Of a DNA stretch of 10,356 bases, positions 1,682-6,623 are shown one piece after another. This DNA is from a virus. The translations under genes were made by a program, and so were the position numbers. Every line of letters begins with the position of its first letter. Within the stretch, counting starts at the first letter, position 1. The stretch lies in UHGV virus genome UHGV-0145483. One strand, written 5' to 3'. Below the pieces are notes generated by a model. It saw only the letters and a program-made list of their open reading frames with translations. It did no database searches and was not told the origin of the DNA.

Positions 1682-1879
1682 ATGCTGAAACAGCAGGATA
1701 TGACCGAAACCGCCAGAGTGGTGTTTAATGAATTAAGCGTCACCGAACCGGCGACAGTCGGGGAGATTGCACAGAATACGTACCTTTCACGCGAACGCTG
1801 TCAGTTAATACTGACCCAGCTTGTTATGGCGGGGCTGGCAGACTATCAGTTCGGTTGTTACAGACGCCTTCCGCAGTGA
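1682..1879 (+). CDS. Small hypothetical protein (65 aa), possible winged-helix DNA-binding fold
   Basis: ATG 1682 preceded by aaaagggaaaaag; the longer ORF from 1559 would start inside the terminator T-run. Segment VGEIAQNTYLSRERCQLILTQLVMAGLADY resembles a wHTH recognition helix and wing. Stop overlaps a terminator hairpin. Confidence 0.5.
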   Translation: MLKQQDMTETARVVFNELSVTEPATVGEIAQNTYLSRERCQLILTQLVMAGLADYQFGCYRRLPQ

Positions 1880-1889
1880 AGGCTTTTTT
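1866..1889 (+). terminator. Intrinsic terminator overlapping the stop of the small ORF
   Basis: GCCTTC (1866-1871), 6-nt loop, GAAGGC (1878-1883), then TTTTTT 1884-1889. Confidence 0.5.
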
Positions 1890-2029: not shown

Positions 2030-3088
2030 ATGCTTAATACTGTAAAAATATCCAGTTGTGAGTTAATCAACGCCGACTGCCTGGAATTTATCCGGTCGTT
2101 ACCCGAAAATTCTGTTGACCTGATAGTCACGGACCCGCCGTACTTTAAAGTGAAGCCTGAGGGCTGGGATAACCAGTGGAAGGGCGACGATGATTACCTG
2201 AAATGGCTGGACCAGTGTCTGGCGCAGTTCTGGCGGGTGCTGAAACCTGCCGGAAGTCTTTACCTGTTCTGTGGCCATCGCCTGGCATCTGATATCGAAA
2301 TCATGATGCGTGAACGCTTCAGTGTGCTGAACCATATTATCTGGGCGAAGCCGTCCGGACGCTGGAACGGGTGCAACAAGGAAAGCCTGAGGGCGTATTT
2401 CCCCGCCACAGAGCGCATTCTGTTCGCGGAACATTATCAGGGGCCGTATCGCCCGAAAGATGCCGGGTATGAGGCGAAGGGCAGGGCACTGAAACAGCAT
2501 GTGATGGCCCCGCTGATTTCTTACTTTCGTGATGCGCGTGCTGCCCTGGGGATAACGGCAAAACAGATAGTGGATGCCACAGGAAAGAAAAACATGGTGT
2601 CGCACTGGTTCAGTGCCAGCCAGTGGCAGCTACCGGACGAAAGCGATTATCTGAAATTACAGGCGCTGTTTGCCCGGGTGGCAGAAGAGAAGCATCAGCG
2701 GGGTGAACTGGAAAAGCCCCACCACCAGCTGCTGGAGACGTATACTTCACTGAACCGGCAGTATGCGGAACTGCAGAGTGAATATAAGCATCTGCGGCGG
2801 TATTTTGGCGTAACTGCGCAGGTGCCGTACACGGATGTGTGGACGCATAAACCGGTGCAGTACTATCCCGGGAAACATCCGTGCGAAAAACCGGCAGAAA
2901 TGCTGCAGCAGATAATCAGTGCGAGCAGTCGTCCGGGTGACCTGGTTGCAGATTTCTTCATGGGGTCAGGTTCGACAGTCAAAGCAGCGATAGCGCTGGG
3001 ACGTCGTGCAACTGGCGTTGAGCTGGAGACTGAGCGTTTTGAGCAGACGGTCAGGGAAGTTCAGAATTTAGTCAGTCAGAACGGATGA
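2030..3088 (+). CDS. DNA amino-methyltransferase, beta class (N6-adenine or N4-cytosine)
   Basis: 352 aa; catalytic motif IV DPPY (IVTDPPYF) near the N-terminus and AdoMet motif I FxGxG (DFFMGSGST) near the C-terminus, the permuted order of beta-class amino-MTases. No adjacent restriction endonuclease is visible, so it looks orphan. Confidence 0.85.
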   Translation: MLNTVKISSCELINADCLEFIRSLPENSVDLIVTDPPYFKVKPEGWDNQWKGDDDYLKWLDQCLAQFWRVLKPAGSLYLFCGHRLASDIEIMMRERFSVLNHIIWAKPSGRWNGCNKESLRAYFPATERILFAEHYQGPYRPKDAGYEAKGRALKQHVMAPLISYFRDARAALGITAKQIVDATGKKNMVSHWFSASQWQLPDESDYLKLQALFARVAEEKHQRGELEKPHHQLLETYTSLNRQYAELQSEYKHLRRYFGVTAQVPYTDVWTHKPVQYYPGKHPCEKPAEMLQQIISASSRPGDLVADFFMGSGSTVKAAIALGRRATGVELETERFEQTVREVQNLVSQNG

Positions 3089-3128
3089 TATTGCAGGATT
3101 AGTTACGTACCGTTATTATCCTGCGCCC

Positions 3129-3204
3129 GGCCCTTTAGCTCAGTGGTGAGAGCGAGCGACTCATAATCGCCAGGTCGCTGGTTCAAATCCAGCAAGGGCC
3201 ACCA
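3129..3204 (+). tRNA. ileZ: tRNA with CAU anticodon, Ile2 (lysidine)-like
   Basis: Manual cloverleaf: acceptor GGCCCTT/AAGGGCC, D-arm TAGCTCAGTGG...GAGC, anticodon loop CTCATAA, T-loop GGTTCAAATCC, encoded CCA at 3202-3204. Close to E. coli ileX as recalled. Confidence 0.85.
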
Positions 3205-3211
3205 TCACATA

Positions 3212-3288
3212 CCGCCATTAGCTCATCAGGATAGAGCGCCAGCCTTCGAAGCTGGTTGCGCGGGGTTCGAGTCCTCGATGGCGGTCCA
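3212..3288 (+). tRNA. argN: tRNA-Arg, anticodon UCG (reads CGA)
   Basis: Manual fold: acceptor CCGCCAT/ATGGCGG (C1:G72), D-stem GCTC/GAGC, anticodon stem CCAGC/GCTGG with loop CTTCGAA, T-loop TTCGAGT, encoded CCA at 3286-3288. Gene name follows Stx-phage convention and is not verified. Confidence 0.75.
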
Positions 3289-3301
3289 TTATCGGTATTC
3301 T

Positions 3302-3378
3302 GCGTTGTTAGCTCAGCCGGACAGAGCAATTGCCTTCTAAGCAATCGGTCACTGGTTCGACTCCAGTACAACGCGCCA
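3302..3378 (+). tRNA. argO: tRNA-Arg, anticodon UCU (reads AGA/AGG)
   Basis: Manual fold: acceptor GCGTTGT/ACAACGC, D-stem GCTC/GAGC, anticodon stem ATTGC/GCAAT with loop CTTCTAA, T-loop TTCGACT, encoded CCA at 3376-3378. Confidence 0.8.
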
Positions 3379-3443
3379 CACTTATTTTTTTCTGGCTTGC
3401 TTCGGCGGGCCTTTTAGTTGCTGAAAAAGAAAACACCAGGTGG

Positions 3444-3476
3444 TTAGCAGGGTATCCGTTACCCTGCTAAATTTTT
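3444..3476 (+). terminator. Intrinsic terminator downstream of the tRNA cluster
   Basis: Perfect 11-bp stem TTAGCAGGGTA/TACCCTGCTAA (3444-3454 with 3460-3470), 5-nt loop, then TTTTT 3472-3476. Confidence 0.55.
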
Positions 3477-3691
3477 AAATACCTCACAATTCAGCAAGTT
3501 GATGATTGTCTGGCTGTCAGGGATTTTGTTAAAAAAATCCTGCATGGTGAATCCCCCTGAGCGGAGGGGCGACTGGTGACGGTATAATCTCTGATTATCA
3601 AAACGAGAATGACGCGGGTTTAGTGGCACCGGGCTGAACTCACCGGGAGGCACCCGGCACCATGTTCATGGTGATACAGAAATGCGGCTTC

Positions 3692-3716
3692 AGCCCCTCT
3701 CCGGAGGGGCTTTCTT
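3692..3716 (+). terminator. Intrinsic terminator, + strand
   Basis: 8-bp stem AGCCCCTC/GAGGGGCT with TCCG loop, followed by TTCTT. Confidence 0.45.
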
Positions 3717-3722
3717 ATGGAC

Positions 3723-3750
3723 AAAAAAGCCCGCGCTGGGAGACGCGGGC
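3723..3750 (-). terminator. Intrinsic terminator, - strand, back-to-back with the + strand one
   Basis: 7-bp stem GCCCGCG/CGCGGGC (3729-3735 with 3744-3750), 8-nt loop; A6 at 3723-3728 on + gives a U-run after the hairpin on the - strand. Confidence 0.4.
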
Positions 3751-3944
3751 GGCAAGGAATAAACAATAAAACGTGAAGTAATATTTCAGCTGGCGAATAA
3801 TACCCCATAGTAATCACTCTGCGCAACTGCGCGGCCTTTTTCGTATTGCGGGCTGTAGTCTCCCTTCTGCCATTGTCCTGTAACTTCCGGACTTCAGCCC
3901 GTTCCCTCATCTGACTCACAACATTATCCCGACCGGGAGGATTC

Positions 3945-5927
3945 ATGACATTTAAACACTACGATGTGGTCAGGGCGGCGTCGCCGTCAGACCTTGCGGA
4001 GCGACTGACACAAAAACTGAAGGAGGGGTGGCAGCCATTTGGCAGCCCTGTCGCCATCACGCCTTATACCCTGATGCAGGCCATTGCGGCGGAAGGTGAT
4101 GTCACCACACCGGTGGTGGTGCAACCGTCGGGTGATGGTGGCGCTGTTATCAGCACCACCAGCGAACCGGAATATTACTTTGTCATTGCGCTGGCCGGGC
4201 AGTCCAACTCGATGTCTTTTGGCGAGGGGCTGCCGCTGCCGGAGACATATGACCGTCCGGACCCGCGTATTAAACAGCTGGCGCGTCGCAGTACGGTGAC
4301 GCCGGGTGGTGCCGCCTGTAAATATAACGACATCATTCCGGCAGACCACTGTCTGCATGATGTGCAGGATATGAGTAACCTGAATCATCCTCATGCAGAC
4401 CTGAGTAAGGGACAGTACGGTTGTGTGGGGCATGCTCTGCATGTTGCCAAAAAGCTGCTGCCGTTTATGCCTGCGAATGCGGGTATCCTTCTTGTTCCAT
4501 GTGGCCGTGGCGATTCGGGATTTACTGCGGGGGCCGAGGGGGCGTTTAACGAAGCGTCGGGAGCGACCGCAGGCTCGTCCCTGTGGGGGGCGGATAAACC
4601 GCTGTATCATGACCTGGTCAGCAGAACCCGTGCGGCCCTGAAGAAAAATCCGAAGAACGTGCTGTTATCAGTGATCTGGATGCAGGGAGAAAAAGATGTC
4701 AGTTCGGGGAGACATGCAGAACACAATGCGCTTTTCCTTGCCATGGTAAATCAGTTCCGTACGGAACTGGCAGATGTGGCAGAGCAGTGTACTGGCGGGA
4801 CAACGGCCAGCGTCCCGTGGATTTGCGGTGATACCACGTACTACTGGAAGGAAAGGTATGCAGCGCCGTATGAGGCGGTTTACGGTGGGTATAAAGGCAA
4901 AGCTGCGCAGAATATTCACTTTGTGCCGTTGATGACGGATGAGCATGGTGCGAATGTGCCGACAAACGAGCCGTCAGAAGATCCGGACATTATCACGGCG
5001 GGATACTATGGTGCCGCGTCACGCAGTAATGGTAACTGGACGACAGCCGATCGTAAAACGCACTTCAGCTCCTGGGCGCGAAGAGGCATTGTTTCAGATC
5101 GGCTGGCAGGAGAGATACTGGTGCGAGCCGGGCGTTTGCTGCCGTTCCTGAGCGGGCAGTCTGCACCGCTGGCGACCACGCCAGCCTCCACGGGGGATGC
5201 ACAGTCTGGCTCTGCGGGTCAGACGCAACAGCAGGGTGCAGGTACTTCTGCAGGCGGTCATACTGAAGCCGTAACAAGAATGGTGGCCGGATATGATGCG
5301 AACAGTGGCAGTGGTGTATGGACAGAGCAGCAGTGGAATGCGTCCGGTGGTAAAGGCACTGTGACGGATGACAGTGGCAGGAAGGCGCTGCGACTGGAAA
5401 AACAGCCGGGTAAACTGACCTCCTGGAAGATGTTCCGTACTGTTGCGGTGGAGGAGGCAAAAAATCTTCTCAGCAAGGGGGGTGAAATTGCCGTACGGTT
5501 CAAAATTCCGGATGGAAGCGAACTGGTGAACGGACAGTTTGTCTTTGGTCTCTACTGGCCGGTGTCGCAGTGGGCGTCAGGCGCGGCAGCAAACAGTATG
5601 CTGGCATCATTCTTCCTTCAGACGGATGCATCAAATCTGAATCTTATGCACCACAAGGGCACGTCGAATGCACAACTGGGTACATTTGGTGCGTTTGACC
5701 ATAACTGGCATACGGTTGTTTTCCGCTTTGCGGGAAATAACAGCGAAAGAGTCGTTCCGGTGATTGATGGTACAGAGCAGACGGCGTTTGACCTTGTGAT
5801 GTGGACAAATGATGGCTTTACAGCAGATACGCTGACGCTGACAGATATCACGGGGGCAAAAGCGACGTATCCGGTACTGCTTGATACGGTCACAGTCAAA
5901 GTTAACGAAAGCCGGGCATCATCATAA
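3945..5927 (+). CDS. nanS-p: Prophage sialate O-acetylesterase NanS-p family (DUF1737 N-domain, SGNH esterase, C-terminal beta-rich domain)
   Basis: 660 aa; SD gggagg 4 nt before the ATG. N-terminal MTFKHYDVVRA...EGWQPFGSPV matches the DUF1737-type domain of phage NanS-p proteins; SGNH block I FVIALAGQSNSMSFGEG carries the catalytic Ser; a Ser/Gly/Thr/Gln-rich linker (about aa 400-440) precedes the C-terminal domain. Position matches the gene that follows stx in Stx phages. Confidence 0.85.
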   Translation: MTFKHYDVVRAASPSDLAERLTQKLKEGWQPFGSPVAITPYTLMQAIAAEGDVTTPVVVQPSGDGGAVISTTSEPEYYFVIALAGQSNSMSFGEGLPLPETYDRPDPRIKQLARRSTVTPGGAACKYNDIIPADHCLHDVQDMSNLNHPHADLSKGQYGCVGHALHVAKKLLPFMPANAGILLVPCGRGDSGFTAGAEGAFNEASGATAGSSLWGADKPLYHDLVSRTRAALKKNPKNVLLSVIWMQGEKDVSSGRHAEHNALFLAMVNQFRTELADVAEQCTGGTTASVPWICGDTTYYWKERYAAPYEAVYGGYKGKAAQNIHFVPLMTDEHGANVPTNEPSEDPDIITAGYYGAASRSNGNWTTADRKTHFSSWARRGIVSDRLAGEILVRAGRLLPFLSGQSAPLATTPASTGDAQSGSAGQTQQQGAGTSAGGHTEAVTRMVAGYDANSGSGVWTEQQWNASGGKGTVTDDSGRKALRLEKQPGKLTSWKMFRTVAVEEAKNLLSKGGEIAVRFKIPDGSELVNGQFVFGLYWPVSQWASGAAANSMLASFFLQTDASNLNLMHHKGTSNAQLGTFGAFDHNWHTVVFRFAGNNSERVVPVIDGTEQTAFDLVMWTNDGFTADTLTLTDITGAKATYPVLLDTVTVKVNESRASS

Positions 5928-5932
5928 CCGGC

Positions 5933-5969
5933 AAAAAAAGCCGCCAGCGGCAGGAACGGAAGCTGGCGG
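5933..5969 (-). terminator. Minus-strand terminator-like hairpin just after the nanS-p stop
   Basis: A7 (5933-5939) then 8-bp stem CCGCCAGC/GCTGGCGG (5941-5948 with 5962-5969) around a 13-nt loop; only on the - strand does a U-run follow the hairpin. Confidence 0.3.
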
Positions 5970-6577: not shown

Positions 6578-6588
6578 CGGCGGGGCAG

Positions 6589-6623
6589 GGCCATCAGTAA
6601 AACACTGATGGCCTTTTTTATTT
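6589..6623 (+). terminator. Strong intrinsic terminator between the acidic ORF and the holin
   Basis: Perfect 10-bp stem GGCCATCAGT/ACTGATGGCC (6589-6598 with 6604-6613), 5-nt loop, then TTTTTT 6614-6619. Confidence 0.6.

Follow-up and report, generated by a model that had tools for sequence, protein, structure and literature searches.

The 566-bp gap between the last tRNA and nanS-p is very probably a moron site built in three layers: a cargo relic, an STnc100 small RNA (sRNA), and a convergent, leftward, Hfq-binding RNA. The architecture is a known one with known components and has already been described in these prophages; the identity, order, position, and orientation of the parts were established in this analysis. 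The window, i.e., the whole stretch of 10,356 nucleotides that was analysed (UHGV virus genome UHGV-0145483), covers the late genes of a lambdoid prophage, and the gap is its "moron" site. The listed gene order is as follows.

Upstream of Q: DUF968 and RusA, the start of the listed order
925-1464: antiterminator Q
2030-3088: DNA methylase
3129-3378: three tRNAs (ileZ-type CAT, Arg-TCG, and Arg-TCT), the last of which ends at 3378
3379-3944: gap of 566 bp between the last tRNA and nanS-p
3945-5927: NanS-p-type sialate esterase with DUF1737, SASA, and DUF6645 domains
3' of nanS-p: DUF1378, then holin and lysozyme

This order (Q, methylase, ileZ-argN-argO, slot, nanS-p, holin, lysozyme) bears out the preliminary description of the region as the late-region scaffold of Stx phages without the toxin. 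No stx sequence was detected in the whole window by tblastn with Stx2A and Stx2B as queries (all E values > 0.4). Relative to the stxAB moron of Stx-converting phages of the 933W/Sp5 type, both flanks are identical to the window scaffold, the left one comprising the tRNAs and the hairpin and the right one the sRNA pair followed by nanS-p, whereas the slot holds stxAB in those phages and 56 bp of the end of a terB-DUF3927 cassette in the window. The tRNA at 3129-3204 was called tRNA-Met (CAT) by ARAGORN, while its RefSeq orthologue is annotated as tRNA-Ile (ileZ, lysidine-modified CAT). The following features were assigned within the gap.

3379-3415, + strand: trailer of tRNA-Arg(TCT) with a hairpin at 3394-3411 and a T-run, the left edge of the cargo slot
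3416-3471, + strand: slot content, a 56-bp relic of the terB-DUF3927 3' end including the terminator hairpin 3444-3470
3472-3512, + strand: conserved region 5' of the sRNA, motif TTAAAT..CTCACAATTCAG
3513-3722, + strand: STnc100-family sRNA gene (Rfam RF02076)
~3615-3657, + strand: internal helices of STnc100
3692-3711, with U-tract to 3717, + strand: intrinsic terminator of STnc100
3723-3750, − strand: intrinsic terminator of the leftward RNA (stem 3729-3750, U-run 3728-3723), back to back with the STnc100 terminator
3724-3887, − strand: body of the leftward Hfq-binding RNA, orthologous to Sakai EcOnc08 and EcOnc21/EcOnc42
3819-3841, + strand: second terminator-like hairpin of this strand (3819-3834) with T-run, ahead of nanS-p
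3848-3902, + strand: conserved long stem-loop of the nanS-p leader (GGGCUGUAGUC ... GGACUUCAGCCC)

The slot had been called empty, but a full-length gene for an STnc100-family sRNA takes up 210 of the 566 bp and the next ~165 to 270 bp are assigned to an antisense RNA gene. The region is therefore densely used, although ORF-based annotation makes it look empty. Convergent sRNA pairs between a moron coding sequence and a conserved downstream ORF have been reported for eight Sakai prophages (Tree et al. 2014, PMC4104026; review, PMC7873438), the pair in Sp5 consisting of EcOnc27 (+) and AsxR (−) (PMC4104026). The window likewise carries two tail-to-tail sRNA genes from the slot to nanS-p, 3' of Q.

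All of the hairpins and hexamers named in the preliminary description were found where it had placed them. A consensus scan of positions 3000-4300 returned 6 terminator-like sites, a count that includes 3692-3711 twice, compared with 1.3 +/- 1.1 in shuffled sequences. The sites were the following.

3394-3411, 3444-3470, 3692-3711, and 3819-3834, + strand: terminator-like sites
3750-3729, − strand: terminator-like site

Every site folded as predicted, with z scores of −1.9 to −4.1 for the single-hairpin folds. The reported convergent terminators are present, at 3692-3711 on the + strand and 3750-3729 on the − strand, with 17 nt between them.

Alignment of the gap to relatives, including the stx-positive ones for which this step had been proposed from the sequence, defined the boundaries of the slot. 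On the left, homology reaches 3415 in all relatives and covers the tRNAs and the first hairpin (3394-3411; −11.6 kcal/mol, z −2.8), which is likely the terminator of the tRNA transcript. On the right, 3472-3512 is kept in all relatives whatever cargo precedes it. In a Stx2a phage (L001), BLAST and alignment placed the stx2AB cassette at the position of window 3416-3483; in E. coli CP55_Sichuan (L004) the slot is filled by terB and a DUF3927 gene; and in E. coli FDAARGOS_1286 (L005) window 3416-3471 is absent, leaving a truly empty 3415/3472 junction. Across the relatives, stx2AB, terB-DUF3927, or nothing occupy one junction, from 3415 to 3472-3484. In L004, the final ~10 codons of the DUF3927 gene and the hairpin behind them align with window 3418-3471, and the slot content was therefore identified as a relic of terB-DUF3927 in which the cassette terminator (3444-3470; −17.8 kcal/mol, z −4.1) has been kept.

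Among the loci fetched, the relic element is most often 600 to 799 nt past the tRNA trailer, as in 18 loci, which were classed by this spacing alone, the terB-DUF3927 content being known from L004, where the spacing is the same. It directly adjoins the tRNA trailer in the window and in L003, L010, and L109, and also in E. coli SCU-106, where it is 100% identical. In that strain the identity to the window is 100% over 3379-3520 but only 92% elsewhere. A 46-mer spanning the slot junction had no exact match in the species-representative genomes. In E. coli JNEC-KY176 (L003, 1599-2903), the sRNA region comes after the cargo relic and is present there in one and a half copies. The DNA from ~3472 to 3944 is backbone, and the same DNA trails stx2B or stx1B in toxin phages; the window-specific feature is the 56-bp cargo relic, itself recurring in other E. 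coli. The cargo exchange site is thus fixed, a slot of 56 to 70 bp between the tRNA terminator and the sRNA pair. The sRNA pair found 3' of stx belongs to the phage backbone, outside the toxin cassette, and occurs with stx2, stx1, terB-DUF3927, or nothing in the slot.

Most of the structured DNA to the right of the slot was accounted for by a covariance-model search, another step that had been suggested beforehand. The search identified STnc100 (RF02076) with a score of 158.8 bits (gathering score of 47; E value of 3e-37) over model positions 1-206 of 206. The + strand terminator that had been noted at 3692-3716 is that of STnc100, and the GC-rich palindromes that had been pointed out at 3620-3660 are real and correspond to two internal helices of the STnc100 model. 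The single-sequence fold of STnc100 gave a z score of −2.5 and its terminator hairpin (3692-3711) one of −2.7, and among eight homologues compensatory changes were observed in 7 of the 38 consensus pairs, with the pairs kept. The STnc100 promoter presumably lies within 3472-3512; at the scan thresholds used, no sigma-70-like site was found on the + strand before STnc100.

In EHEC, STnc100 goes by the names EcOnc05/EcOnc27, used by Tree et al. (2014), and sRNA103, used by Gruber and Sperandio (2015). A 2026 preprint (Zhu, Shabalina, and Storz) relates STnc100 to the EPEC sRNAs PasD1 and PasD2 and places pasD directly 5' of a sialate esterase gene. The window copy resembles the known copies in its helices, its terminator, and its place directly 5' of nanS-p, but it departs from the Sakai Sp4 and Sp5 copies in its variable central segment (~3575-3612). 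In Stx2 phages STnc100 stands directly 3' of stx2B, whereas in the window it follows the cargo relic and no toxin gene is present. Copies in E. coli O157 have been reported to be transcribed and Hfq bound, and one of them lies just 3' of stx2B (PMC4104026, PMC5331693, PMC12370729, PMC12711010). Transcription was found for copies in EDL933, one of which was confirmed by Northern blotting (PMC5331693); for the stx2 copy, sequence variants that statistically predict HUS have been reported (PMC12711010). The Hfq peak of Sakai EcOnc05 (+) maps to window 3574-3701. By analogy with the orthologues in EDL933 and Sakai, for which expression has been shown by Northern blotting together with RNA-seq and CRAC, respectively, the window gene would be expected to produce a discrete Hfq-associated STnc100 RNA of ~200 nt. 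Two variant arrangements were noted among related loci. Two tandem STnc100 cores 230 to 480 nt apart occur in L009, L012, L021, L028, L040, L064, L067, and L076. In L006 and 20 similar loci the block of the minus-strand RNA, between STnc100 and nanS-p, has given way to an AT-rich insertion of ~600 bp, and the distance from the core to nanS-p is 781 nt.

The third layer was assigned by orthology. By alignment, the Sakai EcOnc08 (−) peak falls on window 3724-3796, with 97.3% identity to Sp4, and the EcOnc21 (−) peak falls on window 3802-3887, with 91.9% identity to Sp4; identity to a Stx2a phage over the same two segments is 100% and 98.8%, respectively. EcOnc42 of the Stx1 phage Sp15 coincides with EcOnc21 once a 135-bp shift between versions of NC_002695 is applied. 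This shift, by which Sakai sRNA coordinates in NC_002695.2 are +135 relative to NC_002695.1 at Sp5 and Sp15 but not at Sp4, was fixed from the published PR'/tR' positions and from AsxR being 282 bp 3' of stx2AB. EcOnc08/21/42 is described in O157 Sakai as a leftward, Hfq-bound RNA on the basis of Hfq-CRAC and Northern blotting (PMC4104026, Table S2), with a Northern blot size of ~271 nt (PMC4104026). The Northern probe, which has the sequence of the + strand, matches window 3795-3829 at 30 of 35 bases, so that 5 of the 35 bases under the published probe differ between the window and EcOnc08/21/42. The strand, the terminator, and the position between STnc100 and nanS-p are the same in the window as for EcOnc08/EcOnc21 (Sp4) and EcOnc42 (Sp15). 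Sp4 is, like the window, toxin free, and it has ileZ-argN-argO, a 489-bp gap, and a nanS-p homologue. Since the orthologous EcOnc08/21/42 is documented by Hfq-CRAC and Northern blotting, a leftward RNA that would be antisense to the nanS-p leader and end at the minus-strand terminator is supported for the window by this analogy. A weak OmrA-B match in Rfam on the minus strand (3722-3810; 21.8 bits, E value of 0.24) was below threshold and was rejected; it probably reflects the terminator together with a short AUUAUUCG match.

The terminator of this leftward RNA (3729-3750; −16.9 kcal/mol, z −3.6) was compared across relatives. Viral stretches containing an STnc100 core were fetched (120 in all), and the segments from the STnc100 body to the start of nanS-p, 39 of them distinct, were aligned. 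MAFFT left five stem variants out of register, and each was therefore folded separately. The five versions of the stem at the position of 3729-3750 are GCCCGCG(U), UGCCCGAA, GCCCGA, UGCCCGUA, and (A)GCCGCUC; all are preceded by an A-run on the + strand, on the minus strand all form a hairpin with a U-run, and CCCA is part of each loop. The stem has thus been replaced at least four times with the hairpin and U-run kept, and this repeated replacement under conserved structure indicates selection for a leftward terminator.

Terminators enriched on both strands would also be expected if the back-to-back hairpins were a two-way transcription barrier insulating the cargo from the lysis genes, with no stable functional RNAs produced, and an insulating role suits the logic of a late operon. 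This reading is nevertheless very improbable: the RNAs of orthologous loci are abundant, bind Hfq, and have been seen by Northern blotting; the STnc100 body shows conservation together with compensatory changes; and the minus-strand terminator at sister loci is that of AsxR or AgvB, RNAs with demonstrated functions (PMC4104026). The same terminators bear on the 108-amino-acid ORF of the minus strand (3946-3620), the sole long ORF in the gap. It is the longest there and has an ATG start, but it has no Pfam match, it crosses two intrinsic terminators and the antisense of STnc100, 13 of the 21 related variants of the sequence have a stop at codon 43 that interrupts it, and the window has a 1-nt indel relative to five aligned relatives. 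As an unconserved frame that reads through terminators and lacks a Pfam match it was rejected and is almost certainly not a real gene, in agreement with the earlier statement that the gap holds no credible ORF.

Having assigned the layers as a cargo relic, STnc100, and a convergent leftward RNA, we considered where the leftward RNA might start. The preliminary description had proposed an antisense promoter overlapping the nanS-p start and a transcript of roughly 190 nt. The candidate is as follows.

3923-3951, − strand: candidate antisense promoter with ATGTCA (3951-3946), a 17-nt spacer, and GATAAT (3928-3923)

In this proposal a sigma-70 promoter at 3951-3923 would drive an RNA from ~3916 to the terminator at 3729-3750. 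It was the sole promoter-like site found by the scan on the minus strand near nanS-p, it occurs in Sakai Sp15 too, and the end of the EcOnc21 peak (window 3887) is compatible with transcription beginning near 3916; the orthologues do, moreover, make a leftward RNA that ends at this terminator. However, matches of this quality (9 of 12 promoter positions) occur at chance frequency, with 2 sites found and 1.0 +/- 1.2 expected. The hexamers overlap the ribosome-binding site and start codon of nanS-p, so that their conservation is otherwise explained, and the −10 reads GATAGT in 9 of the 39 variants and AATCCC (+ strand) in three more. The candidate predicts an RNA of ~193 nt, in conflict with the ~271 nt published for Sakai, and extra conservation reaches to ~3998, beyond the promoter. 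We therefore consider it quite unlikely that this promoter makes the RNA. The antisense idea itself stands to the extent that a leftward RNA running to this terminator is documented in orthologues, while the proposed promoter is a chance-level match and the proposed length does not agree with the published one.

The 5' end of the leftward RNA is probably further right than 3887, at ~3916-3998, and an RNA of 271 nt would start near 3994. A scan by eye of the minus strand at 3950-4070 found no convincing promoter fitting the 271-nt RNA. The first 18 codons of nanS-p (54 nt, 3945-3998) have 94% DNA identity in four phages, compared with 54 to 76% for the next 100 nt. The conservation boundary near 3998 is ~274 nt from the 3' end of the minus-strand RNA and near the predicted 271-nt start.

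AsxR, AgvB, and EcOnc03 occupy a position homologous to that of the leftward RNA in the window, abutting STnc100 and convergent with it. The published sequences of these three RNAs equal three of the 39 aligned variants, and Rfam places AgvB or AsxR abutting and convergent with STnc100 in L042, L061, and L082. They share with the window the CCCA-loop terminator and an aligned −10-like hexamer. In contrast, the window lacks their conserved 42-nt 3' region (GUAUCUCAUGC..GCCCGAACCCA.UCGGGC), its terminator stem differs from theirs, and the documented RNA of the window class is ~271 nt rather than the 51 to 60 nt of AsxR/AgvB. The AsxR (RF02703) and AgvB (RF02702) models, which score 88 to 97 bits in L061 and L042, gave no match at an E value of ≤1 in 2900-4300. 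Since Rfam finds neither family in the window, the link to the anti-sRNAs rests on position rather than sequence.

This homologous position raises the question of a second, shorter product from an internal promoter, for which the candidate is the following.

3826-3797, − strand: candidate internal promoter with TTGCGC (3826-3821), an 18-nt spacer, and TATTAT (3802-3797)

Such a promoter might also make an RNA of ~68 nt (~3791 to 3724), a diverged relative of AsxR/AgvB whose 5' region differs from theirs and could act as a sponge for another core sRNA. In the 39-variant alignment the window-class TATTAT shares columns with the TAAAAT of AsxR/AgvB, which lies 5 nt before the RACE-mapped 5' ends, and TTGCGC is kept 18 nt upstream of the hexamer in all classes. 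The 5-nt gap between the EcOnc08 and EcOnc21 peaks coincides with the TATTAT hexamer (window 3797-3801), the EcOnc08 peak is 73 nt long and thus near the predicted ~68 nt, and the CCCA loop found in all terminator variants suggests common descent. The column match, the shared TTGCGC 18 nt upstream, and the gap between the Hfq peaks are what make a ~68-nt RNA possible. Against it, the whole block around the hexamer is ~97% identical within the window class, so that conservation of TATTAT is uninformative there; the −35 TTGCGC matches the consensus at 3 of 6 positions, with an 18-nt spacer; the Rfam AsxR and AgvB models do not match in the window; and the EcOnc08 and EcOnc21 peaks are of similar height, as expected for a single RNA. 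No short species has been published, but one would have escaped the published probe (3795-3829). We regard this additional RNA as possible but doubtful. The fuller proposal, that the window-class leftward RNA is a diverged sister of AsxR/AgvB which has kept the promoter and makes a ~68-nt RNA whose new 5' "decoy" region sponges a different core-genome sRNA, appears rather unlikely. If true, toxin-free as well as Stx1 and Stx2 prophages of the window class would carry a third kind of anti-sRNA.

The TTGCGC element is formed on the minus strand by the loop and 5' arm of the + strand hairpin 3819-3834 (−9.1 kcal/mol, z −1.9), which all classes of relatives keep. The EcOnc04-type class is without the convergent pair, and there the homologue of this hairpin is the first terminator past the sRNA body, suggesting that the convergent pair was inserted 5' of an older terminator. 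In L015 (2852-3160), of the EcOnc04 type, an STnc100-like RNA without both convergent terminators was observed. Further toward nanS-p, the long stem-loop 3848-3902 (−20.5 kcal/mol, z −3.85) contains a T-T mismatch in the window that is a perfect pair in the L042 class, giving a 12-bp perfect stem.

We next considered how the three layers of the moron site might operate together, inferring the steps from the established logic of Q-antiterminated late operons. The terB-DUF3927 relic (3416-3471) sits where Stx phages carry stxAB, with its cassette terminator kept. In the lysogen, the tRNAs and STnc100 would be transcribed from their own promoters, STnc100 (3513-3722) presumably ending at 3711-3717, and the + strand terminators at 3394, 3444, 3692, and 3819 would stop lysogen transcripts before nanS-p and the lysis genes. 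After induction, Q-modified polymerase would be expected to read through these + strand terminators. The EcOnc08/21/42-type RNA would start at or inside the 5' end of nanS-p, run antisense across the leader with a 3' end at ~3724, and be stopped before running into STnc100. It probably acts in trans via Hfq, as do AsxR and AgvB. Its expected full complementarity to the leader of nanS-p may also allow it to pair with late transcripts that leak through, or to damp them.

Three further terminators were observed in the window outside the gap. A terminator with a T-run at 1866-1883 (+) lies ~400 nt past the Q stop codon, the expected position of tR' and hence the expected place of an StxS-like, early-terminated PR' RNA. 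A strong 12-bp terminator at 6587-6615 (+), ~40 nt 5' of the holin gene (6654), falls in the esterase-holin interval where the PasA/PasC sRNAs are reported; Rfam gave no match here. Finally, a terminator-like hairpin with a U-run lies on the minus strand at 5941-5953, just past the stop codon of nanS-p (5927). The minus-strand Hfq peak EcOnc52 of Sakai Sp4 lies at the 3' end of the nanS-p homologue, and by this position the hairpin at 5941-5953 may mark a further leftward sRNA.
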